Below are positions 5,463-24,886 of a stretch of 64,000 nt of DNA, in pieces (position 1 is the stretch's first letter; every line of letters starts with the position of its first letter). This DNA is from Clostridium sp. CAG:762 (GTDB lineage: Bacteria > Bacillota_I > Bacilli_A > RF39 > UBA660). Where the stretch lies: the NCBI GenBank assembly GCA_000432575.1, contig HF996829.1, forward strand, positions 35,272-99,271, given 5' to 3'. The notes beneath the pieces were generated by a model. The model was not told the DNA's origin. It searched no databases and saw only the letters and a list, made by a program, of their open reading frames with translations. A program made the position numbers and the translations under genes.

Positions 5463-6410
5463 TTATTCAATAACAAGAATTTGACCAATGCTAAGAAGAT
5501 TACTAGAAAGATTATTTAGAGCCTTTAAATTATCAACAGAAGTATTAAATTTTTTTGCAATTGAATATAAACTATCCCCCTTTTGAACTGTATAAGTAGT
5601 TTGTTTATGGGAAGTTGGAATCTTTAAAACCTGACCAACACTTAATAGATTGGATGTAAGGTTATTAAATTTTTTTAATTTATCCACAGTCGTACCTAAC
5701 TTTCTTGCTATAGAGTAAAGACTATCGCCTCTTTGAACAACATAAGTTTCGCTTGGTAGTTCTTGCGATGGTGTTGTTATAGGTATTTTAAGTACCTGAC
5801 CAATGCTAAGAGTGTTAGAGACAAGCTTATTTAACTTCTTAATTTCATCTACAGTTGTATTATATTTTCTCGCTATTGCATAAAGATTATCACCACTTTT
5901 AACTGTATAATTAATAGTTCCTGGTGTTACTGTTGAAGTAGTACTTGATTTTATTTTTAACACTTGCCCTATTTTTAAAGTATTAGAAGTTAGATTATTT
6001 AGTTTTTTTAGTTCATCAACGGTAAGACCAAATTTTTTAGAAATAGCATATAAACTGTCGCCTGCCTTAACAGTGTATGTTTCATCACTTACTGCAAATG
6101 GAGAAGTATATTTATAGCCAGCATATTCAGCAATAGCTTTTATAACTGCCTCAGCCAATTGTTTATAGTTATCTTGTAAATATTTAACTTTATCTGGAGT
6201 ATCATCAATAAAACCATATTCAACAATGACAGGCTGTGTACGACCTGTATTTCTATGCATAAAATAATAGTCTTTACTTGTATCAGATGGAAGCCGGCGC
6301 TGATAATATTTACGAACGGACTGACCAGTATCAGCAATGTTGTTCAAAATGTCTTTGGCAAGAACGTCGCTGTTGCGAAGGGCGTAAATTACCTCGGCGC
6401 CAGTACCACC
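5463..6410 (-). pseudogene. C-terminal segment of a split N-acetylmuramoyl-L-alanine amidase (distal part of the Amidase_3 catalytic domain plus 4 LysM repeats); the N-terminal segment lies at 25920..26200
   Basis: The reading frame is open from an in-frame TGA at 6420-6422. The translation reads LSPGGTGAEVIYALRNSDVLAKDILNNIADTGQSVRKYY...VEYGFIDD, followed by four repeats of YTVKxGDSLYxIAxKxxTxVxxLKxLNxLxSNxLxxGQxLKIP (LysM). Confidence 0.8.
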
Positions 6411-6434
6411 TGGTGATAGTCAAAATGTAACTTT

Positions 6435-7286
6435 TTATTTTTTTGTTAAATTAATTATATAATTTTCAATTATTTCTTTATTTTCAGTCATCTCTTGTTG
6501 TAAATTTGATAAATCAGTTTTTAGTTTTTTTACTATATCTTTATATTTATCTGTAAAATGTTCATTAATCTTCCAATGAAGATACTCTTTATATTTATTA
6601 GTATAATCTTCAGTTAATTTACTTTTGTCAACTTTTGAACATAATAACACAAATCCCATGAATACACAAAAAACATCTATATGATTTTTCTTATCATTAA
6701 CTAAATATTTTAAAGAACAATATATTAATATTTCTAAAAAATAAGCAGTTTGATAAAAATATAGTATAAATAAATCTTCATCTTTGTTCCTATTCACTTC
6801 TATCATCATACTAACTACAATAGAACTATGAGTATATAAACATAATTTTTCATATGTGTCTTCTAGTAATAATTGTAGTTCTTCTTTATTAAATTCTTCA
6901 AATAAAATTGGACTAATTTCCTTTAATTTAAATTTAAAATTGTTCAATATTGCTGTAGGACGAGTATTTTTGCTTCTACCACATTTTTCTAAACTCTTAA
7001 ACTCTTCATAAGTATCTATAGGATCAAAATATATCATCATTGACATCATTACTTTCTCCATGCACGAACGCATTAATGTCGCAGAATCTACTATATTATT
7101 TCTTCTTAAAGTTTTATATACATTATTAATAGTATTATTTGCTTGATACAATAAATTAATTGTTTCAATACTAATATCAGCAGTTACTGATATATTCTTT
7201 AGATATCTCTTTATATATCTTCTCATTGGTTTTATAAAATTATTCTTTACTAATTGTTCAATAAATATTAAATTTTTTTCTTCCAT
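6435..7286 (-). CDS. Hypothetical protein (283 aa) at the left end of the element
   Basis: ORF only; no recognised motifs. AT-rich and Lys/Asn-rich. Confidence 0.45.
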   Translation of the reverse strand: MEEKNLIFIEQLVKNNFIKPMRRYIKRYLKNISVTADISIETINLLYQANNTINNVYKTLRRNNIVDSATLMRSCMEKVMMSMMIYFDPIDTYEEFKSLEKCGRSKNTRPTAILNNFKFKLKEISPILFEEFNKEELQLLLEDTYEKLCLYTHSSIVVSMMIEVNRNKDEDLFILYFYQTAYFLEILIYCSLKYLVNDKKNHIDVFCVFMGFVLLCSKVDKSKLTEDYTNKYKEYLHWKINEHFTDKYKDIVKKLKTDLSNLQQEMTENKEIIENYIINLTKK

Positions 7287-7315
7287 TTTGCCACCAAATA
7301 TAAATTTTATATTCT

Positions 7316-7639
7316 TTATTCTTTTATATCATATTCTAATGATAATTTATTAAAAGTTTCTAAATCACATTTGCTTTTTAGTTCATTCATATATAAAGAT
7401 TTATAAAAAGACCATCTTTGAATAAAATCAGCAATTGACATTTGATCTATTGAAATATATTGAGCATTTGGTTTTAATTCTTCAATAGATTCATAAATGA
7501 TAGACTCTTTTTGAAATTTCGATTTTGCCTTTAATGTTATTTCTTTTAACTTTTCACGATTTGGGTATGATGAATTTAATTGTTTGTCAATATCTTGTAT
7601 ATCCTTTATTAATTCTAATATATCTTTTTCTAGTTTCAT
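7316..7639 (-). CDS. Hypothetical protein (107 aa)
   Basis: ORF only. Confidence 0.4.
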   Translation of the reverse strand: MKLEKDILELIKDIQDIDKQLNSSYPNREKLKEITLKAKSKFQKESIIYESIEELKPNAQYISIDQMSIADFIQRWSFYKSLYMNELKSKCDLETFNKLSLEYDIKE

Positions 7640-7651
7640 AATTAATCACCT

Positions 7652-8194
7652 CTACTTCATTTCAATTTCCTTTTCATCAACATATTGGTAATTTAACAAA
7701 TTATCACTAGTAATCACACTTTTACCCAGCTCATTCTCTAAATCTTTTCTTGCATTACCAGCAATTTTGCCACCTCGTCTTGCTACATCAATGTTTTCAT
7801 TTAATCCTTTTGGATTTTTCTTTTTGCTATTTCTCTAGTTGCAATTTCACCTAAATCAGCTAATGTCACTTCTACATCGGTCATATTATCTCTTAATGAT
7901 TCTTTCCTAAGTCCTTTAAATGATTTATACTCTTTTGCAGTCATACCAGACCATTCTTTATAAATTTCATTTGTTAGAATTGCATACTCTTTTGATTCAG
8001 TTATTCCTCCATCTTTCCATACATCTGTAAGTTGTTTTCTATCTTGAATACCTTTAATTCTTTTTGCAATCCATTTTTCATCATAACCTTTAGTTCTATA
8101 TAAGTCTATTGCTCTTTGTGCTGCTAATGAAGGATCAAAAATTTCATCTATTCTCTCACTTCCTAGTTTAGCAAGCCATTGTTTTATAGGCTCT
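7652..8194 (-). pseudogene. C-terminal part of a split and frameshifted Bro-N/DinD-like (DNA-damage-inducible protein D family) gene
   Basis: Frame 1 gives ..EPIKQWLAKLGSERIDEIFDP..EYAILTNEIYKEWSGMTAKEYKSFKGLRKESLRDNMTDVEVTLADLGEIATREIAKRKIQKD*. A -1/+1 shifted frame continues with GLNENIDVARRGGKIAGNARKDLENELGKSVITSDN..*, the conserved DinD tail. The shift lies in the run GCAAAAAGAAAAATCC at about 7805-7830. Confidence 0.65.
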
Positions 8195-8197
8195 CTG

Positions 8198-9865
8198 TTA
8201 AGACCCAAATGACACGTTTTGGGTCTTAACATCTTGAGGCGTTAGAGCAATTTTAAATTCAGAACCTGTTTTTAATATAAATCTAATTACATTTGGATCT
8301 TTCTCTCCATTTTTTAATACTTCTCCAACTACAATTTTCTCTACAAAATTTTCAAAAGTGTTTTCATCAAATTCCGTTAAAGTGCAAGGAATATTTATAA
8401 TCTTTTCTATTTCTTTTATTTTAGTAGAAATATTTTTATTATCCTCATTTAATTTTTGTAGTTCCTTTAATTCCTCATCTAAATTAGATAATTTTGTTTT
8501 TATTTCTTCTTCTTTTAAATCATAAACTTCTTTTGTAATACTATTATCTAATCTCATATCAACTAATTTTAATAACTTATCTTGTAATACTTTTTTATTG
8601 TTTTCTATTTCGTTAATACTCTTTTGATAATCATTATCATTAATAACACCTTTTATTGTGTTTAAAAGAAGTTCTTTTGTTTTATGCTTATTCTTAACAA
8701 TATTATTATAAAGTTCTATAAACATTTTTTCTAATATATCTTCTCTGATATATCTTGAATCTTTACAATCTTTCTTATCATAGACTCTTTGATAACACAT
8801 CCAATAATAAGGAATAGTACCATCTTTTTTCTTGCTTCCATGTCTTCTAACATAAGTTGTTCCACAAAATCCACAAGTTATTTTACTACTAAAAGGATAC
8901 CTTTTACTATAATTTGTTGGGTGTTTACTTCCTTCAGGTATTACTTTACTACTTCGTTTTTCGTATATCTCCTGTGCCTTATTCCAAACTTCTCTTGTTA
9001 TTATAGGAATATGATGGTCTTTTACATAGTATTTTTCTTTCTCTCCAAAATTTTGAACTGCTCTATGCGAAATAGGATTTTCAATATACCATTTTTGACT
9101 AATTAAATCTCCAACATATTTCTCATTGATAATCATATTCCTTATTCTACTACTTGTCCATCTTTTACCAGTATAAGTTAATATTCCTTTTTCATTTAAT
9201 AATCTTGCTATTGTTTGTGTACCTTTACCATTAATATACCAATCAAATACTTGTCTAACAATTTTGGCTTGTTCTTCGTTTATTTCAAGTTCTTTTGTTT
9301 CTTTATTCCAAACATATCCATATATTCTAGCAATACCATTCATTTCGCCACGTTTCATTTTGGCTCTCATACCCATTTGAACATTTTGAGATGTTGATTC
9401 ACTTTCTGCTTGTGCAAATGCACTATAAAGTGTTAAAAACATTTCGCTATCTAATTCTAGAGTATGAATATTTTCTTTTTCAAAATATACATCTACATTA
9501 TGTTCACGAAGTAATCTAACATATTTTAAAGTATCAAGTGTATTTCTAGCAAATCTTGATATAGACTTTGCTATGATAATATCTATCTTACCATTTAAAG
9601 CATCATCTATCATTCGCATAAATTCTGTTCTTTTCTTAACTTGTGTTCCACTAATACCCTCATCAGCATATACACCAGCAAATTCCCAATCTGGATTAGA
9701 TTTAATATAATTCGTATAATGATTAATTTGTGAAGAATAACTTGTTAATTGTTCTTCGGAATCAGTGCTTACTCTTGCATAAGCACAAACTTTTTTAATT
9801 ATTCTTTTAACGGAATTTTTAATATTATTTTTGAGATTAGCTGCAATAATCTCAACTTGTGCCAT
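8198..9865 (-). CDS. Large serine recombinase (resolvase/invertase N-terminal domain + recombinase domain + zinc ribbon + coiled-coil)
   Basis: AYARVSTDSEEQ catalytic Ser motif, IIIAKSISRFARN, zinc ribbon CGFCGTTYVRR..YYWMC; 555 aa. Confidence 0.9.
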   Translation of the reverse strand: MAQVEIIAANLKNNIKNSVKRIIKKVCAYARVSTDSEEQLTSYSSQINHYTNYIKSNPDWEFAGVYADEGISGTQVKKRTEFMRMIDDALNGKIDIIIAKSISRFARNTLDTLKYVRLLREHNVDVYFEKENIHTLELDSEMFLTLYSAFAQAESESTSQNVQMGMRAKMKRGEMNGIARIYGYVWNKETKELEINEEQAKIVRQVFDWYINGKGTQTIARLLNEKGILTYTGKRWTSSRIRNMIINEKYVGDLISQKWYIENPISHRAVQNFGEKEKYYVKDHHIPIITREVWNKAQEIYEKRSSKVIPEGSKHPTNYSKRYPFSSKITCGFCGTTYVRRHGSKKKDGTIPYYWMCYQRVYDKKDCKDSRYIREDILEKMFIELYNNIVKNKHKTKELLLNTIKGVINDNDYQKSINEIENNKKVLQDKLLKLVDMRLDNSITKEVYDLKEEEIKTKLSNLDEELKELQKLNEDNKNISTKIKEIEKIINIPCTLTEFDENTFENFVEKIVVGEVLKNGEKDPNVIRFILKTGSEFKIALTPQDVKTQNVSFGS

Positions 9866-10199
9866 TTAATACCTCACTTTCACTTTTATTTTTTTTGAAC
9901 TTGCAGTCGTGTTCTCATTAATTATTATACTAAATTTTTGACTAATTCTATAGTCATTAATAAAAACTTTTAATTTTTTCTTTCAACACATAAAATTGTT
10001 TTTCATTAATTAATTCTAATTTTAATAATTTTGATATTATAGATAAATTAATTGTTTCATCAATAATATTATCTATTTCTATTTGTGTTAATATCTTTTC
10101 TTTGTTATCATCTTCTTTCATAGTTAAAATTACCCCCTTTCTTTTTATTATTTTTTAAACTTCATTTTCATAACTAATCTCAAATCCTTTCCGTTAATT

Positions 10200-10619
10200 T
10201 CATCTATAAGGTTTTAACAATTCTTCCATTTCTAATCTTTCTTCTTCAATAGGTGGTATTGTTTCTTCTCGTTTTCCATTCCAAACTTCTACACCATCAG
10301 GATCCACTCTAATATGTGGACCATTTCTACCATTTATTAATTCATCTTCATTATTTGCTATATCTAAAACAGTTATAAATAATTTAATATTGTTATTAGA
10401 ACTATAAGAATTAAGATAACCCTTAATAAATACTTTAGTCCCTTTAACAAAAAAATCTTTATATATTTCATAAAGATTTCGGTTAATATTTAAACTAGAA
10501 TATACTTTTCTTTTATCATATTTAAGAGTGGTTAATCCAAACTTAATATAATCTTGATTATTATCCATTATATTATTAATTGTTCCAGATATAATTATTT
10601 CATTTAAATCTACATTCAT
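10200..10619 (-). CDS. OB-fold protein, possibly SSB-like (139 aa)
   Basis: Weak call: N-terminal b-rich region ISGTINN..FVKGTKVFIKGYL and an acidic C-terminal tail EEERLEMEELL. Confidence 0.3.
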   Translation of the reverse strand: MNVDLNEIIISGTINNIMDNNQDYIKFGLTTLKYDKRKVYSSLNINRNLYEIYKDFFVKGTKVFIKGYLNSYSSNNNIKLFITVLDIANNEDELINGRNGPHIRVDPDGVEVWNGKREETIPPIEEERLEMEELLKPYR

Positions 10620-10759
10620 ATATCATTTCCTTTCGTTTAATTAATTTAAATTATTTAAATAATTTTAAACTTATATTATTTATTATAATTATTTATTAAT
10701 ATTATTTATTCTGTTAGAAGTTATTCGCTATACATATAGGCAGTATCTTGCTATTTAAT

Positions 10760-11032
10760 CTAGAAGATATTTGCTAAATATATTTTTCTAGCACTATCGT
10801 CATTATCAATTTTAAGATAATTATTTCTTCTCAAAGTTGTTATTGAACTAGATATAGTTCTTTTAGATACTTTTAATAAATTACTTAAATATCTATTACT
10901 TGCATAACAATATCCATCTTTCATTGATAAAGTTGTTATTAAGCCCATTAATAGTTTAGTAGTAGAAGATAAAACTTCATCTAGTAAAACTACCATCGGT
11001 ACTTGTATATATTTTAAATTAGTTAAATCCAT
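10760..11032 (-). CDS. HTH protein of the phage replisome-organizer/RepA_N-like type (90 aa from an internal Met; the track ORF extends to 11191)
   Basis: Motif GYCYASNRYLSNLLKVSKRTISSSITTLRRNNYL, paralogous to 18183..18710. A GGAGA RBS lies 8 nt upstream of the ATG at 11030-11032. Confidence 0.5.
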   Translation of the reverse strand: MDLTNLKYIQVPMVVLLDEVLSSTTKLLMGLITTLSMKDGYCYASNRYLSNLLKVSKRTISSSITTLRRNNYLKIDNDDSARKIYLANIF

Positions 11033-11332
11033 AATATCATTCTCCTTTTCTTTAATTTTTTGCAACAAAAAAACTTGTAAACACATATTACAAGCCATAA
11101 CAATTAATAAACGACTTAAAATAAATACACAATGTGAAATAAACACATCTTTAATGGTTGCTTGAAGTAAAACATATAATACATATTTCAATCCCTTTTA
11201 TTCTTTTTGTTTAGTTCTTTGAAATATGTTTTACTTCAAACTAGTTCATCTCATATTTCTATAAGATAGGTTCTAACATAAGCCTCCAATCTTACTGAAC
11301 CTTATTTGCTAACGACTATCTATGTGTCTTCT

Positions 11333-11596
11333 TTAGCAAATGTGATACTCATACATTCCTGTATGATATTCTTTGAATCTTAGATAATTATTATTTTGTA
11401 ATTGTTCTAAGATTTTTCTTAGTCCTTTGTTTTTTATTCGAACTGTCTGTTGAATATCTCCTACATTTAGATGTGAGATAGTTCTTTCAAATCCCTCTGC
11501 ATATAGATATGCAAATATTTCTTTTGCTTTAGGTTTGATATTCTTATCTTCCCATATCTTGTGGTTTGATATATCTAGATGTTTTAAGTTTCTCAT
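11333..11596 (-). CDS. Small winged-helix/HTH DNA-binding protein (87 aa)
   Basis: ..EIFAYLYAEGFERTISHLNVGDIQQTVRIKNKGLRKILEQL.., divergent from the XRE gene. Confidence 0.4.
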   Translation of the reverse strand: MRNLKHLDISNHKIWEDKNIKPKAKEIFAYLYAEGFERTISHLNVGDIQQTVRIKNKGLRKILEQLQNNNYLRFKEYHTGMYEYHIC

Positions 11597-11747
11597 TCAT
11601 ATCTTGTCCTCCTTTCTTTTTGGAAATTAAGTTTCCATAATCCGACAATACATCATAAATATTATATTGTCAACCCTGTTTCCGTTTTTTTCTTGCATAT
11701 TTCTATTTTTTGTTATATAATTAAGTTGTCAGAGGAGATGATTAGGA

Positions 11748-12257
11748 ATGTTAAATAAAAAAAAATCTGATGAGACACTTGCAGAATTAGTAAGAAATGC
11801 ACGAAAAGAAAAAGGATTATCTGCAAGGAAACTAGCTAACCTACTTAATTTAAGTCATACTGAAATAAATAATATAGAGAGTGGTTATAGAGTTAAGCCA
11901 TCAATTATTGTATTAAAAGGATTAGAACAATATTTAGGTATTCCTTTTACTAAATCTGCAAAACTTGTAGGATATTCAAAAGAAACAATAAAATATGGTG
12001 AAGATGAAATTATTGTTAGCTATGAAATGTATGATAAGAAAATAAAAGAATTTAAAGAAGAAATTAGAAATGCCGAAAATACCATTGAATTAAAAAGACA
12101 TATAGCAATGGATACAGAAGAATATTTTAAAGATATACATAATTATTTAAAAGAACAGAAAGATATTGATAAAAAATTATTAGATAAGGCAAATTCTATT
12201 GAAAGATTTTTATCAGAAATACAAAGAAAATACGAGAGTATTTTCAAAGAAAAATAA
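11748..12257 (+). CDS. XRE-family (Cro/CI-type) HTH transcriptional regulator
   Basis: LSARKLANLLNLSHTEINNIESGYRVKPSIIVLKGLEQYLGI. Confidence 0.75.
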   Translation: MLNKKKSDETLAELVRNARKEKGLSARKLANLLNLSHTEINNIESGYRVKPSIIVLKGLEQYLGIPFTKSAKLVGYSKETIKYGEDEIIVSYEMYDKKIKEFKEEIRNAENTIELKRHIAMDTEEYFKDIHNYLKEQKDIDKKLLDKANSIERFLSEIQRKYESIFKEK

Positions 12258-12377
12258 CCTTTTACCATTATTGGTATTAGGTTATTTTTTGTATAAAAAA
12301 GGATATTACGTTTTGTTGCGTTAGCAATGAAAGTAGTAGACTTTTTTCTTTTTTATGAAGTCATAAGACAAAATAAA

Positions 12378-12430
12378 AAAGGCACCAATACTTTTTACGA
12401 TAGTTTACAGTATTGGTGCTTATTGGGTTT
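12378..12430 (+). terminator. Rho-independent terminator (stem GCACCAATACT/AGTATTGGTGC, then a T-rich tail)
   Basis: 11-bp perfect stem downstream of 11748..12257, followed by TTATTGGGTTTTT. Confidence 0.5.
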
Positions 12431-12504
12431 TTAAAGGATCTCCTTTGGCACACTATTCCTAGTTGGCATTATGCCGACTTGGTAGTGTGTTACTATAATG
12501 GAAT

Positions 12505-12545
12505 TATAGTTTTTAAAAACAGATTAACTTTATCAATTAATCTGT
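12505..12545 (-). terminator. Rho-independent terminator for the 12563..13711 gene
   Basis: Stem CAGATTAA/TTAATCTG, followed on the minus strand by TTTTTAAAAA. Confidence 0.5.
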
Positions 12546-12562
12546 TTAATTTAAATAAATAA

Positions 12563-13711
12563 CTATTTTTTCCTAATTGTTAATACAGCAGGATTTACAG
12601 TTCCTTTTTCTTCTGAATCTTCAATACCATATTGTTTATTCCAATATTTTCTATATTCTTCACCTTGTTTTGCAAAATGTGATAGAGCATTTGCAGTAGC
12701 TCCAGCCATAAATCCACTTAATCCTAACTCTTCATTGTATACTTGTTGTTCAGCTTCTTCAAATGAAATACCTTCTTCAAATTTCTTCATCATTGAAATA
12801 GTTGCTTTAACAACAAATACTGAATAACCATCATTACTATTATTATCAGCAAATTGTAACCATTCTTCTGCTGTTTCAGGTTTAACTAAAGTTAATCCCT
12901 CTTTCATTAATGTGTATTTAGCTTTTTTAGCTGCTAAATCTGCACGTTCTATTGCTTTATTTCTTTCTTCTTCGGCTTTTAATCTTCTATCTCTTTGCTT
13001 ATCAACAATAACATCACCAAAGAATTTTCTTTTTGAATCTTCAATATCTTCTGGGCTTCTTCTATCATAGCCATATTCTATATATGGATTAGAATATAGT
13101 TCTTCGCCAGTTTCTTCTAATGTTATAGATGAAATTGCAGAACCATAGCCTATAAATGGTATTCCAGAATGTTCTGTTTCAATATTTGAAAAATAATTTA
13201 CATTTCTTAATGTATCAGTTTCATTTTGCTCAACTCCGTACCACCAAGCTTTATATGAAATTCTTTCCCCAATATGTTTTTTTAGGTTTTCAAACATTCT
13301 AATAGCATTTTTTTCTTTGCTATGTTTTGCAATATATTCAGCAAAAGTCATATCTCCTTCTTCCATTGGTAAGAAAGAACCTGCTTGAGTATGGCATACA
13401 TAATTATAACCATTACATTTCATGTTGCTAATTAGAATTCTATAATCTGGATTATTTCCATATTTTGCTTTAATTTCATCTAAACTATATCTTTTTCCAA
13501 AATAAATCCATCTAGAATAATTTGATTTTTCACCATCATAAGTTTTTTCACCATCTACAACATATTCTTTGTCGTAAAAACGGAATCCTTGCATTTTACC
13601 ATCATTTTCAATTTGCATAGGATTTCTTTCAGTCACTTCTTTTATTGAAGATTCACTAAATAATAGACCTCTGTAAATTTTCTCAACATAAGTTTTAGTT
13701 ATTTTTTCCAT
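12563..13711 (-). CDS. Hypothetical cargo protein (382 aa from MEKITKTY; the track ORF extends to 13780)
   Basis: Strong RBS GAAGGGGGAAATATT upstream of the ATG at 13709-13711. No recognised domains; a charged coiled-coil-like segment KQRDRRLKAEEERNKAIERADLAAKKAK. Confidence 0.55.
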   Translation of the reverse strand: MEKITKTYVEKIYRGLLFSESSIKEVTERNPMQIENDGKMQGFRFYDKEYVVDGEKTYDGEKSNYSRWIYFGKRYSLDEIKAKYGNNPDYRILISNMKCNGYNYVCHTQAGSFLPMEEGDMTFAEYIAKHSKEKNAIRMFENLKKHIGERISYKAWWYGVEQNETDTLRNVNYFSNIETEHSGIPFIGYGSAISSITLEETGEELYSNPYIEYGYDRRSPEDIEDSKRKFFGDVIVDKQRDRRLKAEEERNKAIERADLAAKKAKYTLMKEGLTLVKPETAEEWLQFADNNSNDGYSVFVVKATISMMKKFEEGISFEEAEQQVYNEELGLSGFMAGATANALSHFAKQGEEYRKYWNKQYGIEDSEEKGTVNPAVLTIRKK

Positions 13712-13806
13712 AATATTTCCCCCTTCAGAAAATCGTTTAATATAATAGCATAAATTAACTAGAATGTCAAGCAAATCCAACTGATTTGTATTAAAAGCAG
13801 GGAAAA

Positions 13807-14199
13807 CTATAATAAATTTAATGAATAATAATAATCATATACATTTAATTTTTGGTTAATTATAATATTTATTTCTTCATCATTAAAATCATATTGAAAG
13901 ATTTTAAATAATAATTCTACTAAAAAATTTTGCTTTTCTAATAATGATAATTCCATATATTTAGCTGATATAAATAATAAGTTTTTATATTTAGCAAAGT
14001 TAGTTATTACTTTTTTATAATTTGAATCTAATATTCCTAATACTTCTTTTAATAATCTAATGAAACTTTCGTCATATTTAGTAGAAAAACAATTTTCTTC
14101 AAGTATATGTATTGCTAATCTAACCTTATTAATCCCATTTAAATCATCAATAATATCAACTAAATTCATTACCCTTTCTGTATTATTTTCTAATAGCAT
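13807..14199 (-). CDS. Hypothetical protein (130 aa)
   Basis: ORF only. Confidence 0.35.
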   Translation of the reverse strand: MLLENNTERVMNLVDIIDDLNGINKVRLAIHILEENCFSTKYDESFIRLLKEVLGILDSNYKKVITNFAKYKNLLFISAKYMELSLLEKQNFLVELLFKIFQYDFNDEEINIIINQKLNVYDYYYSLNLL

Positions 14200-14373
14200 A
14201 AATCTTCCACCTTCCTAATTTGCCATTTAAGGCACTTTATTTCAAAGAACAGATAAGAGATTAAGCTTTACCTTAAAACCTCAATATGAGTGATTAAATT
14301 AGGTTTAATCTCGTTTTCTTGTCTTTTTATTTATCACTCAAACAATTAAAAAAATCAAGAGTGTTTTTTAATT

Positions 14374-15669
14374 TTATCTACTTAAATCAAAATCATCTTT
14401 ATCATATTCACCTTCATCATAATCTCTAACTCTTTCTTTGTAATAATCAGGTGCTTCAACATATTCAAATAATTCATCTTGATTAGTTGTTCCTTTAGAT
14501 ATTCTTACAACATCTCTCATATCAAACTCACTATTGTCATAACAATCTTTAACAACTTCAGCAGTTTCATCTTTAGTATAGTCATTACCTCGTTGTAATA
14601 GTTTCCTTAAAAACTTCTTTAATAATTGGAATAGTTCATTTAATCTATACATTAAACTTCTATTTTCTTGTTCTAGATTTTGATTTTCATATTCTAATTT
14701 ACTAATTTCTTTATTATACTTTTGATTTTCTTTTTCAAGTGATTTATAACTATTAGCATAACTATCAACTTCATTAAATATTGTTTGTAGTTTAGGTTGT
14801 AATTCCATTACTTTTTTAGATTCACTAATAACATTATTCATACTATCAAAAGTATCTTTTTTAACTTTAACAAAATCTTTATCAATAATAAGTGTTTGTT
14901 TAGTAGTTTTCATTTTTTCTTCAAAATCAGCCATTGCTTTATCAATTCTATCATTTCTTACATTTAATTCTTGATTAAGTTTTTTAGTAAGTTTTTTATA
15001 TTCCTTTATTTTAATATGCTGATTATCACTACCTTTAATACCTCGTTCTAAATCATAACCTTTTTCAGTTAGTCTTTTATGATACATATCTTGTAATTGA
15101 GATAATTGTAATTTATCTTTGATATATTGTTTTTTAGATATAGTATATCTTTCAGATTTAGTCCTATTATCTAATTTCTTAACAAGTGGAACAACAACAC
15201 AATGAATATGTGGTATTTCTTCATCTAAATGGACAGTTGCATAAAGTATTTGTTCTTTCTTATAGCCTAAATCATTATAAACAAATTCCATACAAGTATC
15301 TGCCCAATCTTTTATTTGTTCTCTAGACATATCTTTAAAGAAATTATGTGACGCAGTCATAACTAATTCATCAGCAACACAATTTCTTGAACTATTTAAC
15401 ATTTCGTGATATCTTTTCTTTCTATCAGCTCGTTCAGTTTTCATTCGTTCATTGTGTTCCTTTTTATATTCTTTTGTTAATTCATCAAAACCTTTAACAT
15501 ACTTAACATTTAATGGAACAAGTTCTATATTATTCTTACTTAATTCTATTTTTATATCTTTATTTGATTGATATACTTTCTTTTCACGTTTATTATGTGA
15601 TCCTATTTGTGCTAAATCAGGTATAGTCATAATAGGTTCACTTCTAAATATTGCATAATTTAAATTCAT
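14374..15669 (-). CDS. MobV-family (Mob/Pre, pMV158 MobM-like) relaxase
   Basis: Hallmark HxDE..PHxH motif (ATVHLDEEIPHIHCVVVPL), an N-terminal catalytic region, and a long C-terminal coiled coil. Confidence 0.8.
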   Translation of the reverse strand: MNLNYAIFRSEPIMTIPDLAQIGSHNKREKKVYQSNKDIKIELSKNNIELVPLNVKYVKGFDELTKEYKKEHNERMKTERADRKKRYHEMLNSSRNCVADELVMTASHNFFKDMSREQIKDWADTCMEFVYNDLGYKKEQILYATVHLDEEIPHIHCVVVPLVKKLDNRTKSERYTISKKQYIKDKLQLSQLQDMYHKRLTEKGYDLERGIKGSDNQHIKIKEYKKLTKKLNQELNVRNDRIDKAMADFEEKMKTTKQTLIIDKDFVKVKKDTFDSMNNVISESKKVMELQPKLQTIFNEVDSYANSYKSLEKENQKYNKEISKLEYENQNLEQENRSLMYRLNELFQLLKKFLRKLLQRGNDYTKDETAEVVKDCYDNSEFDMRDVVRISKGTTNQDELFEYVEAPDYYKERVRDYDEGEYDKDDFDLSR

Positions 15670-15971
15670 ATATTGTTTCTCCTTTCTTTTTTACACAACA
15701 AAAAAAGATATGTAATTAAACATACCTTACATTGCAACTAATCAAAATTAATATTTTTACTTTTACAATCATACTTATTTATTGAATTATATGATTACAA
15801 GAACACGACACTTTAATTATCTTAAAACTGATACTATAACACTCCAATTGCTTTGATTATCTTTTTTATCAGTAATATCTAGTTTTACATAATCTTTATA
15901 AAAATCAACAATTCCTTTAAAATAAAGTATATCTTGTATATTTTTATTCAATGTCATTTTATACAAAACAC

Positions 15972-16283
15972 TTCTGCATTCTTGCTAGGAACTGATTCAA
16001 TAATTCTAAACATTCCTTCAATATCAACAACGTCAGTCATACGATATTTTCCATCTTGTGCTTTTAATTTTAAAGCGTGACAATTTGTCACGGTTTCATT
16101 TCCTTCTTCTTTTAAACGTTGCTTAAGTTTTCTCCAATAGGCTTGCTTATCCTTACTTTCCGAAATAACTCCAACAAAATCAACAACACTTATAAAATAT
16201 TTTTCTTGTTCCTTATCCCAAACAGTTCTAATTGTTTCATTATTAAACATTTTATTTACTAAATGCATTTTATCTTGATTCAT
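15972..16283 (-). pseudogene. N-terminal part (Bro-N domain) of the split Bro-N/DinD-like gene
   Basis: MNQDKMHLVNKMFNNETIRTVWDKEQEKYFISVVDFVGVIS..TNCHALKLKAQDGKYRMTDVVDIEGMFRIIESVPSKNAEVF, then 3 element-derived codons and a stop (track ORF 15954..16283). Confidence 0.65.
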
Positions 16284-16397
16284 AAGATACCTCCTTTGCT
16301 GTATATATTATATCAAATATTTGTTCTTTTTTCAACATTTGTATAAGTAGTTTATCAATTATTTTATGTACACATTGTCGCAAGTTACGACAAAGTT

Positions 16398-18008
16398 CTA
16401 ATTATTCAGTATACTAAATTTATAGATAATTTCTATGTTTCTATCTTTATCTATAATAATTTTATCTATTAAAGCCCCAATTAATTCTCTTGATGGATTA
16501 TCTATATCAATTAATTTTTTTATTTTATCTTCGTAGTCTTTTATTTCTGACTTATTAACTTTCTTTTCTTCTTTTGAATCTTGTAGACTTTGAATTTTTT
16601 CTCTTATTCTAACTAGAGAATTTTCTGTTTCTCTAGAAATTCTTAAATACATTTCTTCAGATACTATGCCATAAAATTTATCTTGATATAACATATCTAA
16701 CTTACTAATTAATGATTTTTCTTGCTTTCGCAAATCATTTATATTGTTGTTAACTTCACTATTATCTTTTTTATTAATACTTTTAGATATTTCTGATATA
16801 TCTAATTTATTTAAATACTTCTTACAAGTATTTCTAATAACTTCTAGCAATGCTTCTTCTAATTTATCATACGGACTAAAATGAGGTTCACACATTCTTC
16901 TTTTAGGATCTCTTGAATATCTATTACAATTAATAGTCCAATAATCATGATTTTTTCTATAAGAAATTGTTAAAGTATTGCCACATTCCTTACAATATAA
17001 TAAATTTTCAAATAGTCTTTTTTCTCTCTTAGTAATAATAGTTTTAGTAGTTCTTTTAATATTATTTTGAACACTTTCAAATATAAATCTATCTACTAGT
17101 GGTTCATGGGTATTTTTAACTATATCCCAATTACTTTTCGGTAATGATTTTTTCTTTTTGGATTTATATGATACTTTAGTTTGTACACTTTGTACCATAT
17201 CACCAACATACATTTGATTTTTTAAAATCTTTTTAACAGAAGAAATAGTCCACATAGGATTATATTTAGCTTTTGAATTAGGATTCTTTTTCTTCAAACT
17301 ACTAGGTGTTTTAATATTATTATCATTCAAATAAGTGGTTATTTCAGAAAGTCCTACACCGTTATAAGCCATTTCAAATATCTTTTTTACTACCCATGCA
17401 TACTCTGGATCTGGTATTAAGTGCCCTTTATCATTTGGATCTCTTAAATATCCATAACTTGGAGCACTTCCAATAAATTTACCATTTCTCCTTTTGTCAT
17501 TTAAAACATTACGAATTTTAATAGAATTTTGTTTACTATAATAATCATTACAAGCAAATAACCATGTTGCTGAATCATTACTTGCTTGATTAATCGCATT
17601 ATCGTATCCTTCCAACATAGAAATAAATCTTATTCCATTTTCTGGAAAGAAGGTTTCAACATAATATCCTGTTAAAATATGATCTCTACCTAATCTTGAT
17701 AAGTCTTTTACTATTACAAGATTAATTCTTTTGGCTTTAATATCTTCAATTAATCTCTGAAATCCTGGTCTATCAAAAGTAGTACCAGAATATCCATCAT
17801 CTACATATTCATCTACAAAAATAAATCCTTTTTCTTTGATAAAATTCATTAGTATATTTCTTTGATTAAGGACACTCTCACTTTCAGATTCGTAAGATTT
17901 GCCTTCATCAGCTTCTGATAATCTTATATAAATTCCTGCTTTGTAGTAATCTGGCATCACATTTAAAGTGTTATACAAGCTTACTCTCCTTTCCTTGTTG
18001 TATAACAA
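16398..18008 (-). CDS. Large serine recombinase (second copy, outer element)
   Basis: GIYIRLSEADEG catalytic Ser motif, VIVKDLSRLGRD, zinc ribbon CKECGNTLTISYRKNHDYWTINCNRY..RRMC; 536 aa. Confidence 0.9.
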   Translation of the reverse strand: MLYNKERRVSLYNTLNVMPDYYKAGIYIRLSEADEGKSYESESESVLNQRNILMNFIKEKGFIFVDEYVDDGYSGTTFDRPGFQRLIEDIKAKRINLVIVKDLSRLGRDHILTGYYVETFFPENGIRFISMLEGYDNAINQASNDSATWLFACNDYYSKQNSIKIRNVLNDKRRNGKFIGSAPSYGYLRDPNDKGHLIPDPEYAWVVKKIFEMAYNGVGLSEITTYLNDNNIKTPSSLKKKNPNSKAKYNPMWTISSVKKILKNQMYVGDMVQSVQTKVSYKSKKKKSLPKSNWDIVKNTHEPLVDRFIFESVQNNIKRTTKTIITKREKRLFENLLYCKECGNTLTISYRKNHDYWTINCNRYSRDPKRRMCEPHFSPYDKLEEALLEVIRNTCKKYLNKLDISEISKSINKKDNSEVNNNINDLRKQEKSLISKLDMLYQDKFYGIVSEEMYLRISRETENSLVRIREKIQSLQDSKEEKKVNKSEIKDYEDKIKKLIDIDNPSRELIGALIDKIIIDKDRNIEIIYKFSILNN

Positions 18009-18182
18009 CTAAAGCCAATTAAATTATACCATACAAATTTAATTTGGCACATTGTATCAATCACTATTTACCTTACTTTTAATAAATTTAATTACCAGTT
18101 CATAGAAATTAGGAGAATCATCTTTGAAAGTTTCTATTATATTAAACATAAGCCACCTCATTTAAGTATATGAGTGTCTTTA

Positions 18183-18710
18183 TCAATTTATATCTTCCTC
18201 CATTTCTTTAAAACTCTCTAGCTTTTTCTCCATCTCTTTTTGTTCTTCCTTAGTTGCTTCTTTTGATTCAATAGGTTCACCATGCCAGTATTCAACACCA
18301 AATTCATCCACATAATAAATTTTATCTAATATATCTTTTTTATTTTTATTATATTTATTATAATGGTTAAAATTATTTTGAATACTAGTATTAATATTTC
18401 CTTGAATACTTGTTATTCTTTTCTTTAATACCTCGGATAATTTTATTATCCTCTTTGAATTATTTGTTTCACTATTATTAATTTCTATATCAATATATCC
18501 ATTTTTTGATAAACTACTTATACTCTTTGATACAGTTGGTTTGGTACAATCAAACTTCTTCATAAAATATCTATTAGTAGGCCAACAATAGCCATTTTTC
18601 TTACATAGTGACACAATGTCTATTAATAATATTCTCTCAAAGTAAGTTAATCTATTATCTCCTAATACTGATTCTGGTAATACTAAACTTATAAATGGTT
18701 CTTTTTCCAT
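18183..18710 (-). CDS. HTH protein of the replisome-organizer/RepA_N-like type (175 aa), paralog of 10760..11032
   Basis: GYCWPTNRYFMKKFDCTKPTVSKSISSLSKNGYI; sits immediately upstream of the recombinase. Confidence 0.5.
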   Translation of the reverse strand: MEKEPFISLVLPESVLGDNRLTYFERILLIDIVSLCKKNGYCWPTNRYFMKKFDCTKPTVSKSISSLSKNGYIDIEINNSETNNSKRIIKLSEVLKKRITSIQGNINTSIQNNFNHYNKYNKNKKDILDKIYYVDEFGVEYWHGEPIESKEATKEEQKEMEKKLESFKEMEEDIN

Positions 18711-19105
18711 TATTTCTCCAATATAAGATTATCAAGTTTAGTAGTTCCATATTATCCTCCTTTCTTTACCAGTCTTTTTAGGAACACATAAAAAGAACTG
18801 AACACATTAGTCCACAACAAAAATAAGGGAATATTTCCAATCTTTTTTGTTGGATTAATATGTATTCAGTTCTTCACTGATTAATTATTATACATTATTC
18901 TTTAATGTATAATAAAGCTTTCTAATTTCTTTTTAATATTTACTATTTTATATTTATATATGTTTATATGTAATAGTCACATTCCCGTATGACTAGTTTA
19001 ATTATAACACTAATTATTGTATTTTCAATATGTAATCGTTAGACAATATCCGACAAATTATTTTATTTGTTAAAAATCATTAACACTAATTTGAGTGTTG
19101 TCAAC

Positions 19106-19390
19106 TCAAATACCATCATTATTTTCTTGCTGACTTTTTACAAAACTATTATATTCATCTACCTTAGTATTATAATCATTTAAAATATCTTTTATTAATG
19201 ACACAAGCCCTTCTTCTTCTGGAGTTTTATCATCAAATTCTTTGTTAATTGTGTATTTACTCTTTAAATTTTCATTTAACAAAAATTTTACCAATTCTTT
19301 AAAATCTATATCTTTCGAAAAATTATATGTTTCAATAAGATTTTTATCATGATATAGTTTTATATTATCTTGTTCTTTAATTATTTCCAT
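19106..19390 (-). CDS. Hypothetical small protein (94 aa)
   Basis: ORF only; overlaps the downstream gene start. Confidence 0.35.
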   Translation of the reverse strand: MEIIKEQDNIKLYHDKNLIETYNFSKDIDFKELVKFLLNENLKSKYTINKEFDDKTPEEEGLVSLIKDILNDYNTKVDEYNSFVKSQQENNDGI

Positions 19391-21842
19391 ATTCCTCTTC
19401 TCCTAACACATTTCCATATTTTTTATTTCTATTAGAAAATGATTTTCTACCACCATCTAAAATATTCATTATTTCTTCTTTATCATCCTGCGATTCTATT
19501 AAATAATTTTTATAATCTATTTCACCATCATTAGTCACAAATATATAATTAAATGCATCACCATATACCGCAACTGTAGGATTATGAGTTACAAAAATTA
19601 ATTGCTTAATTTTTTTCTTTTCTTTTATTATTGAAACTAGCTTTTGACTAATATAATCATTATCAATATTATCTTCAGGTTGGTCAAATAGTAATATTAA
19701 TTCGTTAAGTTCAAATAACATATCTAAATATGCTACCGACTTCATTCCTGGAGATTCCTTTGATAAATCAGTAATAGTTCTCTTATCAATTTGTTCAAAC
19801 AAATCCTTTTTTACCTTTATATCATCAATATTTATTTTTGAATTAATTTTAAAAAACTCTTTTTTAGGTTGAAATATTTCATTTTGTATGAATTTTGACA
19901 ATTCTGCGGATAAACTGTTGATATTAGCTTTTAGATTTCTTTCTCCATTAATATACTTCATTATTAAACTAAAATCACTTGAATCACTTTTTACTTTCGA
20001 AATTGTACTTGCTATTTTTTCATAAATTGTATCAATAAGATTATCTGGTACTTCATATGAAGTTGTAAATAAATATGGCATTTTAACATATTTCTTTATA
20101 ACAGGGCTTTCTTGTTTAAAATTATCAAGTAAATAATTTAACTTTTTAGAATCTAATATTATTTTAAAATTTCTTTTTATTATATTAATAATACTATTTA
20201 AATTTTTTCGTTGTTCTTGTATTATTTTTTTAGATTCATCTCTTTCACTTATAATTTTGTTTGTTCTCTCATTACTATTTTTTACAACTTCACTATATTT
20301 ATCAAGTAAAAATTTGTATTCACTATATTTTTCAATTATTGTACTATTAATATTTTTTAATTCATCAATATTTAATCCATAATTTTCAAATTCTTTTACT
20401 AATTCATTTAGAGATTTTGAAAGACTATTTATTTTAATAGATACTGAGTCACTGCTTATTTCTGCATAAGTATCATATGTATAATAGTCAGTTTTATCTT
20501 TTAAAATCTTTAAAATTGATGTTATATTTTTATAATTGATATCAATTGGTTTTACATTTTTAGCAATATCTATTATTTGATTAATATATGATAAATCATA
20601 ATCATCTATTTTAGGAAAATATGAAGATATTTGCTTATTAGCAATATCAGGATTTTTATATATTTCAGAAATCTTATCTTGTTCTAATACAGCAAGTGAA
20701 GATAATTGACCAGGATTAATTTTAATTCCATTATAATCAATTCCCAAAACGTTTTTAATATTAAAATTTTTATAATCTGTTGTTATTTTATTATTAGATT
20801 TATTTAAATTCTCAATTATTGCTAATAGTAATGACTTGCCACTTCCTCTTTTTCCAATTATTACATTTAAACCAGGCGAAAAATTAATATCCTTGTTTTT
20901 ACCATTAAGTTCAAAAGAAATACTACTAATAATATTAGGAGGAATTGGTATTTGTTCTTCAGCAGATTTAATAATTCTCGATTGTGGATCTAATACAGCT
21001 AATTCAAATGTTTCAAAAAAGTATTCCAATGAGCCAAAAATATAATTATATATTTGTGGATTATATGGTTCAGCATTATGCCAATCACTAAATTTAAAAT
21101 AACTAAAATAATTACCATAATTTATTATATAATCATATATTTTTTTACAATCCTTATCTGCTATTTCATACTTTTTATCATTTATCTTTTTCCTTATTTC
21201 AGATATAATGAATTTCTTTTCTTTTTCACTTTTATCTTTTAAATTTTTTTCAAACGCTTGAGTTTGTTCATAAAACCCTAACGCCCAATTATCACATGAC
21301 CTTTCATTAAAAGAGGCTGTAACATCAAAAGCACTAAATATTTTGTACATTGCATATTTATTTATATCATTAGACTCTTCTATTGATATTTTATCTAATA
21401 TACTTAAAATACCTCTTGCTTTATTTCCTTCAGGTACAAGGATTATTTTACATTTTAATTGTACAATACAATTTATTATTTCGTGAAATTTTGGTTTATT
21501 ATCATTCTTATAAAGATCATTCAATATTTTTTCCAATCTATTTCCATCTAGATTGTTATCGAAATAAACTCCCATTTGAAAAAAATCTTTATCATTTACA
21601 TAAACATCTAATTCAGTTCCATTTATTATTTCAATTGGTTTGTCTATAATATATTTCCGAATATCATCATAATATGATGATGAATAGACATCATGATCAG
21701 TAATGCTAAAAATGTTTATCCCCTTATCTAAAAGAGCATCCACATAATCCTTAGCACTCATTTGCTTTACTCTAGTTTTATCCTTACTTTTTGAATAATA
21801 TGAATGCATATGCATATCACATTTTAACCATTGTTGTTTCAT
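19377..21842 (-). CDS. PHP-domain phosphoesterase fused to an ABC/AAA-type ATPase (single-gene Ppl-like antiphage architecture)
   Basis: N-terminus MHMHSYYS..FSITDHD (PHP His/Asp motifs). Walker A GLNVIIGKRGSGKSLLL, Walker B LILLFDQPEDNID, and H-loop FVTHNP; 821 aa. Confidence 0.55.
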   Translation of the reverse strand: MKQQWLKCDMHMHSYYSKSKDKTRVKQMSAKDYVDALLDKGINIFSITDHDVYSSSYYDDIRKYIIDKPIEIINGTELDVYVNDKDFFQMGVYFDNNLDGNRLEKILNDLYKNDNKPKFHEIINCIVQLKCKIILVPEGNKARGILSILDKISIEESNDINKYAMYKIFSAFDVTASFNERSCDNWALGFYEQTQAFEKNLKDKSEKEKKFIISEIRKKINDKKYEIADKDCKKIYDYIINYGNYFSYFKFSDWHNAEPYNPQIYNYIFGSLEYFFETFELAVLDPQSRIIKSAEEQIPIPPNIISSISFELNGKNKDINFSPGLNVIIGKRGSGKSLLLAIIENLNKSNNKITTDYKNFNIKNVLGIDYNGIKINPGQLSSLAVLEQDKISEIYKNPDIANKQISSYFPKIDDYDLSYINQIIDIAKNVKPIDINYKNITSILKILKDKTDYYTYDTYAEISSDSVSIKINSLSKSLNELVKEFENYGLNIDELKNINSTIIEKYSEYKFLLDKYSEVVKNSNERTNKIISERDESKKIIQEQRKNLNSIINIIKRNFKIILDSKKLNYLLDNFKQESPVIKKYVKMPYLFTTSYEVPDNLIDTIYEKIASTISKVKSDSSDFSLIMKYINGERNLKANINSLSAELSKFIQNEIFQPKKEFFKINSKINIDDIKVKKDLFEQIDKRTITDLSKESPGMKSVAYLDMLFELNELILLFDQPEDNIDNDYISQKLVSIIKEKKKIKQLIFVTHNPTVAVYGDAFNYIFVTNDGEIDYKNYLIESQDDKEEIMNILDGGRKSFSNRNKKYGNVLGEEEYGNN

Positions 21843-21917
21843 TTATACTACCTCCACTACATAAAAAGCGCAATACAAAAACTTAAACAAGTGTAAGCCT
21901 GTACTAGCGCTTTAAAA

Positions 21918-23081
21918 TTATTTATTTCCCTTTGCTCTATTATGTGTCTGACATAACATTTGACAATTATCTATATCTGTAGATCCGCCTTTACTCCATG
22001 CAGTAACATGATCTGCATCCATTTCTTTTAATTCCCAAATTCTATTTTTATTATTATCATTTCCTATTGCACATAATGGACAATTACTTATATCTTTTAA
22101 TTTTGCATCTTGAGTTTGTTTTTCATATACAACTCGCTTTGTATTATCATCAAATACTCTAATATTCAAAAGTTTAGTATCTTTACATCCACCTAATATA
22201 TACTCACATATACCTTTAGTATCTTTAACTTGTGGATCAGCATATAATTTACATAATATTTCAGAAACCTTATTAGGATCATATGAATTGTTATGATATG
22301 TTTCATATAATCTTCCCCATTCAAGACCTCTCATATCTGATTTTACATCTTTAAATACAGTTGATACCCAAGTTATTACAGAATTGAAATATGTTCTTAA
22401 TTCTGTAATATTAGTATCAAATCTATGTTGACTCATGTAACTATCAATATTACCTTTACTTACCCAATTAAGAGCTGTTGCAAGATATTCTTGCCTATTT
22501 ACATCACCTTTTATATATGCGCTCCATTTTTGAATATTTGCATTTTGAGAATTAGAAAATTCTTCACGAGCCATAGTTACAAAAGGTCCAGAATAAATAG
22601 CATTTAATAATTCTTGATTATTTAGTGGAACACCTACAATATTAATTGTTTTAAACCATTCTTTAATTTCTGATTCTTCACCCTCACAAATATAAATTGT
22701 TAACTGTGAATCAAGAATCTTATCTTGTAAATTTTTAGCCAGTCCATCAAAATATTGCTCCATACAATGTTCATCTTTAATAGCAAATTTATCTGTAATA
22801 AATCTTCCAAAACTAGTAACTCTTTGTTGCCCATCTAAAATTTCATATTTATCTTCTCCAACTTTAACAAAATATAATAAACCTAGTGGATAACCTTTTA
22901 ATAATGAATTAATTACAGCAACATCCCTTTTTCCATCAGCATAAATATAGTTTCTTTGATATTCAGGTTGAATTGTTAATTTTCCACCCCATCCAAATAA
23001 GCCTTTTCCTTCATATTCATTATAAACAAATCCTTCATTTATATCTCTAACAGTTAAATCAGTTTTCAATATTGTTTTCAT
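21918..23081 (-). CDS. DUF262 (ParB-like) + C-terminal HNH nuclease: GmrSD-like type IV restriction endonuclease
   Basis: [14 protein letters not shown] (DGQQR motif) at the N-terminus and [31 protein letters not shown] (HNH) at the C-terminus. Confidence 0.7.
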
Positions 23082-24180: not shown

Positions 24181-24184
24181 ATAA

Positions 24185-24841: not shown

Positions 24842-24856
24842 ACACTCTCACTCCTA

Positions 24857-24886
24857 AAGTTTTAACTCAATAATATTATATCATAC
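24857..24886 (-). promoter_or_regulatory. Candidate extended -10 promoter (TGaTATAAT) for the GIY-YIG/MTase/GmrSD operon
   Basis: The minus strand reads ..AATTGTCGAATTGTATGATATAATATTATTGAG.. about 35 nt upstream of the ATG. Confidence 0.3.

Follow-up and report, generated by a model that had tools for sequence, protein, structure and literature searches.

Integrative and mobilizable elements (IMEs) with serine integrases are site-specific, disrupt the genes that they enter, often reside in genes of other mobile elements and carry an outward-facing integrase at one end (PMC5357655, PMC5704250). The transposon Tn4451 has a low target specificity (PMC5704250), and in C. difficile R20291 the TnpX-related mobilizable transposon Tn6104 lies within Tn6103, with the inner and the composite element each bearing a recombinase of its own and each excising (Brouwer et al. 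2011, PMC3158075). Here we describe a nested locus from Clostridium sp. CAG:762 (GCA_000432575.1, contig HF996829.1, positions 35,272-99,271 of the forward strand; these 64,000 nt are called the window below), in which a 7.8-kb segment with a large serine recombinase (LSR) and a MobV relaxase splits a Bro-N gene within a larger LSR element that itself sits in an amidase-LysM gene. Because gene-targeting IMEs and nested mobilizable transposons are already documented, we regard the locus as a new target and, possibly, a new family within a known kind of arrangement. All positions follow the numbering of the window, and both junctions were read directly beside the listing of open reading frames (ORFs).

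The 7.8-kb segment is very probably a canonical IME that was inserted by conservative site-specific recombination of a serine recombinase at a conserved motif of the Bro-N gene (..NAE/PIKQW..), with Bro-N being cargo of the larger element that its own, unrelated serine recombinase had put into the amidase-LysM gene. The segment has its own recombinase, its own relaxase and att sites with a known empty site, while no VirB4/type IV secretion gene or coupling protein was detected among its ten called ORFs (Pfam/NCBIfam), and orf46, a small ORF scanned separately, has no Pfam match. An earlier note on this DNA, made from the sequence alone, had read the Bro-N gene as split into an N and a C part that align head-to-tail, and the alignment of both fragments with homologues bears this out, since the coordinates are contiguous and the pieces are thus not unrelated paralogues. 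They meet at codon E105/P106 (..SKNAE/PIKQW..) with no residue lost or doubled compared to intact homologues, and the reading frame on the C side opens at 8193, going down, with EPIKQWLAKLGSERIDE. When both pieces are joined and a single frameshift is mended, the resulting 283-aa protein finds thousands of homologues, the best of which (283-284 aa; P0001-P0003) are 93-94% identical at 100% query coverage, and scores 31.9 bits for the Bro-N domain against a Pfam gathering cutoff of 25.6. The additional label "DinD-like" holds only as a weak local resemblance, given that the NCBIfam equivalog NF008573 reaches 19.5 bits against a cutoff of 242 and covers residues 141-233 only. In the window, the N piece forms a 109-aa ORF (16283..15954) that runs into the inner element and stops at a TGA overlapping the ATG of orf46 (ATGA).

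The history of the insertion can be read from genes that lack it. In intact Bro-N genes the empty site is AATGCA-GA-GCCTATAAAACAATGG, while the window has AATGCA-GA-AGTGTTTTGTATAAAATGACA on the N side and GTGTCATTTGGGTCTTAACAGA-GA-GCCTATAAAA on the C side, so that both junctions have AGA and nothing more in common. The insertion is therefore exact, with zero target sequence lost and a GA common to attL, attR and the empty site. One relative of the outer element (L089) aligns to window positions 18100..15973 at 95% identity and then straight to 8194..7653 at 88%, with a 3-nt overlap of AGA, and it is one of ten outer-element relatives in which the outer recombinase is directly followed by a Bro-N gene without any interruption (L086, L089, L092, L093, L096, L097, L108, L124, L127 and L131). 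As loci of this kind keep Bro-N uninterrupted at this position, we conclude that Bro-N is cargo of the outer element and that the 7.8 kb are a later, precise insertion. The C piece has since lost one nucleotide in the A-run at 7821-7825, a frameshift that must be real because it is found in five independent assemblies and that must have arisen after the insertion because another copy of the composite (L229) still has the frame intact; the Bro-N gene of the related copy L004 is also broken near the same place.

The unique sequence of the inner element amounts to 7,779 bp, which together with one GA predicts a circle of 7,781 bp, and the junction coordinates proposed earlier (15971/8195) differ by 1-3 nt from the GA crossover deduced here (15974-15973 and 8193-8192). 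Inverted-repeat arms of 9 nt flank the crossover with a spacer of 13 nt on either side, which makes the predicted attP site, read as GTGTCATTT-13 nt-GA-13 nt-AAATGACAT, symmetric. The right arm GTGTCATTT is found once in the window, where chance would give 0.02 occurrences, and the left arm is kept across the family described below as (A/T)AAT(G/A)(A/G)CA(C/T), 234-326 bp upstream of mobV. The stop codon TAA of the inner recombinase (8200..8198) lies 4 nt before the crossover dinucleotide, not 3 nt from the junction as first counted. It is literally correct that both junctions carry TATAAAA, a motif that we considered as the recombination core and rejected because its copies are out of register (13 nt and 5 nt from the crossover) and because one of them belongs to the inner element and the other to the target; the core is instead the GA with its 13-nt spacers and 9-nt repeats.

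The outer element measures ca. 19.5 kb with and ca. 11.7 kb without the inner one. Its ends read GCAGGG-GG-TGGCGATAGTCATTGTGTAAC (attL) and GTTACATTTTGACTATCACCA-GG-TGGTACTGG (attR), with arms GACTATC/GATAGTC and GTTACA/TGTAAC around a common core GGTGG that differ from the inner arms, and the joint of its circular form is predicted from these ends as ..GACTATCACCA-GG-TGGCGATAGTC... When its flanks are joined, the rebuilt amidase gives a continuous Amidase_3 match (model 1-173/174) across the junction. Among 59 relatives of the outer recombinase in metagenome contigs, most of the longer loci are flanked by one or both amidase pieces and follow one layout: the N part of the amidase, then a TnpV-like gene, orf99, variable cargo, an HTH_36 gene and the LSR, and finally the C part of the amidase. 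The outer element of the window also carries an HTH_36/DnaD_N paralogue and is devoid of a relaxase. With inner empty sites in ten outer relatives and an amidase that is continuous over the outer junction, the proposal of serial site-specific insertions on two nesting levels is supported, and the comparison that was to tell the two recombinases apart finds them to be 25% identical with distinct att arms.

Beyond these main features, the outer element has its left end twice in tandem (25668-25917), with 25749-25792 identical to 25874-25917 (100%) and 25668-25726 resembling 25795-25853 (85%), including a 5'-truncated copy of the TnpV-like gene; near-identical composites elsewhere have a single copy of this end (position 492-616 of such a locus aligns with both window copies). 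We also note an inverted repeat of 26-28 nt, 89-92% complementary, between the start of the outer recombinase gene (17999-18026) and the subterminal left end (25748-25773 and 25871-25898), which may be a regulatory or binding site.

The preference of the inner recombinase for its target becomes apparent from six further copies with recombinases of 86-98% identity, of which one came from a genome scan (L004), four from traced contigs (L223-L226) and one is the locus L237. In L004 and L223-L226, the C part of a Bro-N gene comes after the arm, spacer and GA, cut at the same codon as in the window, though these genes are only 41-82% identical to the one found there and stand in differing neighbourhoods. 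L237 is a complete second copy in a different context with 97.7% nucleotide identity, a 100% identical MobV protein and GA at both junctions. Including the window, all seven contexts with a recombinase of at least 86% identity (7/7) thus share the same Bro-N codon, and the occupation of this codon in different genes by the six close copies identifies the element as site-specific, while a near-identical copy in another Bro-N gene indicates that transposition is evolutionarily recent. The L004 copy is shortened and lacks the backbone from the XRE gene to orf54; its mobV is frameshifted, and its recombinase gene has a premature stop.

Two observations concern the surroundings of these copies. In L237 (5753-9264), the Bro-N gene lies directly downstream of another recombinase (537 aa, DUF4368) that is itself preceded by a Mob_Pre gene, and the location of Bro-N beside a serine recombinase may be a recurrent arrangement. 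L004 shares a single Hadza gut metagenome-assembled genome (MAG; CAKPGT01) with the family member L047, the former in a Bro-N gene and the latter in a recombinase gene, i.e., with differing specificities.

Table 1. Coordinates of the nested elements, their target genes and their att sites in the window
Feature	Position	Strand	Basis or remark
Inner element (site-specific IME)	8194..15972	-	Exactly absent from intact Bro-N genes; same-codon LSR clade elsewhere
Bro-N N-terminal piece, codons 1-105	15973..16283	-	Pfam Bro-N; aligns with residues 1-105 of intact homologues
Bro-N C-terminal piece, codons 106-283	7652..8191	-	Starts at residue 106; 1-nt deletion in A-run 7821-7825
attL crossover dinucleotide GA	15973..15974	.	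Within common AGA 15975-15973; empty-site comparison; by the att rule both ends agree in all 16 family members having two ends and valid arms (17 counting L237)
attR crossover dinucleotide GA	8192..8193	.	Empty-site comparison and family att rule
Left terminal inverted-repeat arm AAATGACAT	15951..15959	-	Includes ATG of orf46
Right terminal inverted-repeat arm GTGTCATTT	8207..8215	-	Within final codons of inner recombinase gene
orf46, 46 aa, conserved small ORF (MTLNKNIQDILYFKG...)	15817..15957	-	In frame, similar length and protein-level conservation across clades
Hairpin AAGGTATGT..ACATATCTT, then T-run	15699..15728	-	Kept in 18-member family alignment; candidate oriT or terminator
MobV-family relaxase, 431 aa	14374..15669	-	Pfam Mob_Pre 5.9e-29; HxDExxPHxH motif (HLDEEIPHIH)
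orf130, variable cargo	13807..14199	-	Homologues in some family members only
orf405, cargo with C-terminal Tad4 (type I Thoeris inhibitor) domain	12563..13780	-	PF25186, 8.3e-21; phrog_9822
XRE-type HTH regulator, divergent from backbone operon	11748..12257	+	HTH_3, 1e-11
87-aa backbone protein, possibly winged-helix	11333..11596	-	Sub-threshold winged-helix match only; conserved in family
HTH_36 protein, 90 aa from internal ATG	10760..11032	-	PF13730, 4e-12; phrog_270, phrog_186
orf139, conserved backbone protein	10200..10619	-	No Pfam, NCBIfam or PHROG match
orf54, directly upstream of recombinase in all cases	9957..10121	-	Candidate accessory/directionality factor (inferred)
Inner LSR, 555 aa, outward-facing	8198..9865	-	Resolvase, Recombinase, Zn_ribbon_recom (Pfam)
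Outer element, in amidase-LysM gene	6411..25919	-	Junction sequences; rebuilt amidase continuous
Amidase N-terminal piece (outer target)	25920..26200	-	Junction reading and rebuilt gene
Amidase C-terminal piece, four LysM repeats	5463..6410	-	Junction reading and rebuilt gene
TnpV homologue, first gene at outer left end	25374..25724	-	PF14198, 3.4e-37, 127 bits, model 2-111/111
Outer cargo	19377..24841	-	Ppl-like PHP/ATPase, type II restriction enzyme (DUF262/HNH), EcoRI-like methylase, T5orf172/PDC-S57 protein (Pfam, PADLOC)
Outer LSR, 536 aa	16398..18008	-	25% identical to inner recombinase

On the minus strand, the inner element reads left arm, orf46, hairpin, MobV, orf130, orf405, the divergent XRE gene, the 87-aa protein, HTH_36, orf139, orf54 and LSR, which agrees with the expectation of an own LSR at one terminus and a MobV relaxase near the other. 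Both the inner and the outer recombinase have a Resolvase domain with the active-site serine, a Recombinase domain and a zinc ribbon, with the motifs YARVST (inner, read from the sequence) and YIRLSE (outer), and the inner catalytic domain matches PDB 3g13 (9.5e-57). The relaxase reaches 110 bits against the cutoff of 100 for NCBIfam NF041497 and is 44-48% identical to MobV proteins of small plasmids in its N-terminal domain, to which the match with plasmid relaxases is confined. The conserved hairpin ca. 35 nt upstream of mobV is a candidate oriT or terminator. orf46 has been called as a 46-aa gene in independent assemblies, and orf54 is better conserved than the recombinase itself (mostly 70-86% identity, range 55-86%, where the recombinases share only 50-68%) and has no Pfam match.

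For several of these genes the initial reading from the sequence had to be adjusted. The large cargo gene that had been listed as unknown, orf405, ends in a Tad4 domain (PF25186, 74.8 bits against a cutoff of 25, model 5-112/113, residues 303-403), and may thus be regarded as a putative anti-Thoeris gene; Tad4 is described as blocking Thoeris proteins at their NAD-processing site (bioRxiv 10.64898/2026.01.28.702374). Elsewhere the gene is called as 382 aa, a homologue of 72% identity adjoins mobV in L035, and a sequence search of the PDB came back empty; for the second cargo gene, orf130, no Pfam, PHROG or PADLOC match was found. The replisome-organizer-like HTH protein looks like the N-terminal domain with which phage replication initiators bind DNA (with the same 90-aa call in L223) and is indeed a paralogue of the outer HTH_36 protein, with 35% identity. 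By contrast, the supposed divergent XRE/winged-helix pair stands as far as the XRE gene is concerned, whereas the winged helix of its 87-aa partner stays below threshold. An SSB-like nature of orf139 is unsupported: besides the lack of family matches, its profile hits the PDB at E=1.2, hhalign against E. coli SSB gives a probability of 3.8%, and an AlphaFold2 model from a shallow alignment has a pLDDT of 41, too poor for a fold search.

In the mechanism that we propose, the inner recombinase would synapse attL and attR, cleave at GA and free the circle with the joint ..GTGTCATTTGGGTCTTAACAGA-GA-AGTGTTTTGTATAAAATGACA.., leaving a repaired site AAGAATGCA-GA-GCCTATAAAACAATGG / AATGCA-GA-GCCTATAAAA. 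The Bro-N frame would be restored at the junction, but the downstream frameshift would remain, so that precise excision would not give a functional Bro-N gene back in the lineage of the window. MobV would then nick an oriT in the ca. 300 bp upstream of mobV, a helper conjugative element would export the single strand, and in the recipient the inner recombinase would integrate the circle at any Bro-N gene with the motif. Each recombinase would excise its own unit only; were the outer element to excise, the inner one would passively go with it, and the relaxase-less island would thereby gain a relaxase and an oriT in cis.

Several points weigh against an active IME of this kind. The predicted attP joint is absent from viral contigs, the sole collection searched for it, and no circular joint or excision product was seen. 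The evidence for an oriT is the conserved hairpin, which is a candidate only, and no helper conjugative system was identified. A scan for promoters and terminators gave overall counts no better than shuffled sequence, with a weak hint only from good -35/-10 matches, one upstream of Bro-N and another between the genes for XRE and the 87-aa protein, and inner excision may need a directionality factor. Finally, the composite is near-identical in many samples and some copies are broken in the inner recombinase (L227, L229) or the relaxase (L229), from which it follows that the inner element may be largely immobile in the lineage of the window.

The closest described relatives in terms of lifestyle are the streptococcal serine-integrase IMEs that target genes belonging to ICEs (integrative and conjugative elements), such as traG, snf2 and maff2 (Coluzzi et al. 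2017, PMC5357655; PMC5704250). Like these, the inner element has one outward-facing LSR at one end, its own relaxase without a type IV secretion system, very short terminal direct repeats and a target specificity that goes with the recombinase clade, and it integrates within, and disrupts, a conserved gene of another mobile element. It differs in its host, an uncultured gut Bacilli lineage, in its target, Bro-N (XRE, RhuM, ORF6N and other serine-recombinase genes in sister clades), in the element that it occupies, a small defence island without conjugation genes and not an ICE, and in its relaxase, which is of the MobV type. With Tn6104 within Tn6103 the locus shares a mobilizable LSR/mob element that sits in an ORF belonging to an integrated element of greater size, a terminal direct repeat of 2 bp and separate recombinases of the inner and outer elements, with excision observed there and predicted here from the sequence; however, Tn6103 is a conjugative transposon of 85 kb and the mob gene in that system is of MobA/L type, whereas the outer element here is an 11.7-kb island without transfer genes. 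For the backbone of XRE, 87-aa protein, HTH_36, orf139, orf54 and LSR, we found no published description.

More delicate is the relationship to Tn4451, whose layout the earlier note had seen in the inner element. The combination of LSR and MobV relaxase, the 2-bp GA crossover, the expected excision to a circle and the size class of 6-8 kb are indeed common to both, and the first two of these traits, as reported for Tn4451 (PMC5704250, PMC3158075), could suggest a Tn4451/Tn4453-family transposon that inserts at almost any GA and struck Bro-N by chance. We consider this very improbable, because a transposon of low target specificity sits poorly with an element that is strictly site-specific (the seven contexts at one codon), because the recombinase is placed at the opposite end and faces outward with its stop codon within the att site, and because TnpV, TnpY, TnpW and the chloramphenicol resistance gene (cat; catP in Tn4451) are missing from the inner element (Pfam), while the closest recombinase among 72,556 plasmids is only 42% identical. 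The hallmark TnpV belongs to the outer element instead, whose first gene is a full-length TnpV homologue. The inner element thus works like Tn4451 in its chemistry and its logic of mobilization but is not a member of its family, a separation drawn by target specificity and accessory genes. An artefactual origin of the nesting, either from unrelated truncated Bro-N paralogues or from a chimeric assembly, has a next to negligible probability: nothing speaks for it except that Bro-N paralogues are generally frequent in genomes of this kind, and both the head-to-tail contiguity of the pieces at one codon with its 3-nt overlap and identical junctions in many independent assemblies from different cohorts speak against it.

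That the inner unit might be a phage satellite or a replicative plasmid-like island that is not mobilized by conjugation is suggested by its HTH_36 protein with likeness to phage replication initiators, by its XRE switch and by a Tad4-domain anti-phage-defence cargo of a kind first described in phages. Nevertheless, this is highly unlikely in our view, as domains of capsid, terminase or primase and the catalytic domain of Rep are all missing (Pfam, PHROG), as the recombinase has no near relative among the viral contigs of IMG/VR (2.9 million; best match 50% identical) and as, on the other hand, a MobV relaxase above its curated cutoff is conserved across the family. A different kind of doubt arises from the recurrence of the composite. 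The exact 109-aa truncated Bro-N product is present in 108 blocks of the assembly collection and the exact MobV protein in 74, and six loci, which stem from five or more different samples, agree with the full composite and its flanks at 99.8-99.99%, so that the nested state is passed on as one unit within a common lineage of the human gut. In the lineage of the window the composite acts as one unit with stable inheritance, and some copies have a decaying inner recombinase or relaxase. The inner element might therefore be a fossil by now that arrived site-specifically, is no longer mobile in this lineage and is inherited with the outer island, as would be in line with chromosomal flanks that many independent gut metagenomes have in common, the later frameshift in the target, sister copies with a split inner recombinase (L227/L233, L229), a split MobV (L229) or a truncation (L235), and the degraded copy in L004. 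All backbone ORFs and both inverted-repeat arms of the window are intact, though, and L237 attests to recent transposition, and we therefore find fossilization rather unlikely.

An insertion into a gene of another mobile element does not appear to be peculiar to the window. A genome scan recovered 279 relatives of the inner recombinase, nearly all in MAGs of uncultured gut Bacilli or "Tenericutes", and ca. 20 loci at 55-68% recombinase identity have the same backbone and the same arms in other conserved target genes. When the rule of arm, 13 nt and dinucleotide was applied to each member, disregarding false positions of the left-arm motif with mismatched dinucleotides in L014 and L032, every complete member examined had the same dinucleotide at both ends: GA/GA in the window, GG/GG in six (L013, L015-L018, L024), CC/CC in one (L026), AA/AA in one (L031) and TG/TG in nine (L035, L039, L043, L045, L046, L050-L053). 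Their joined flanks rebuild continuous target genes, namely those of XRE-type HTH proteins cut at SKWE./G, a RhuM protein (331 bits, full model), an ORF6N protein (right flank only) and other LSRs cut just before a P.GY motif. Nesting within other mobile elements would thus seem habitual in the family and no accident of the window. Tentatively, and with a probability that we place a little below even, the inner element could represent, as its first recognised member, a large and so far undescribed family of LSR/MobV elements of 5.7-11 kb from uncultured gut Bacilli. Its members would be specialised on hallmark genes of other mobile elements and share one att geometry (9-nt arm, 13-nt spacer and 2-bp core), with different recombinase clades retargeted to conserved motifs of Bro-N, ORF6N, RhuM, XRE-repressor or LSR genes.

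One sister clade (L045, L046 and L050-L053; also L039, L043 and L047) lies within LSR genes, between the catalytic domain and P.GY and on the opposite strand, so that here the integrase of one mobile element is disrupted by another.

The locus shows, cleanly and at base-pair resolution, how serine-recombinase elements are nested on two levels in an uncultured but prevalent lineage of the human gut, and it defines an attP/attB pair for a new site-specific serine integrase, to which the relatives add several pairs of the same geometry that are possibly useful for integrase engineering. If the family exists as outlined, it would provide a naturally retargeted set of serine integrases for which attP/attB pairs are known, and in the window a defence island without a relaxase would have obtained one from it, along with an oriT and an anti-defence gene of the Tad4-domain type. 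The putative counter-defence gene rides on a mobilizable element within an island that bears a restriction-modification pair, a Ppl-like gene and PDC-S57, which bears on the joint travel of defence and counter-defence genes.

Elsewhere in the 64 kb, there are no tRNA genes, and an L10 leader is located at 50039-50159. The cumulative GC skew has its minimum near 41-42 kb, and gene orientation changes from minus to plus at 40422/40546 (about 40400-40550 of the window); together, the skew minimum and the orientation switch would fit an origin or terminus of replication.

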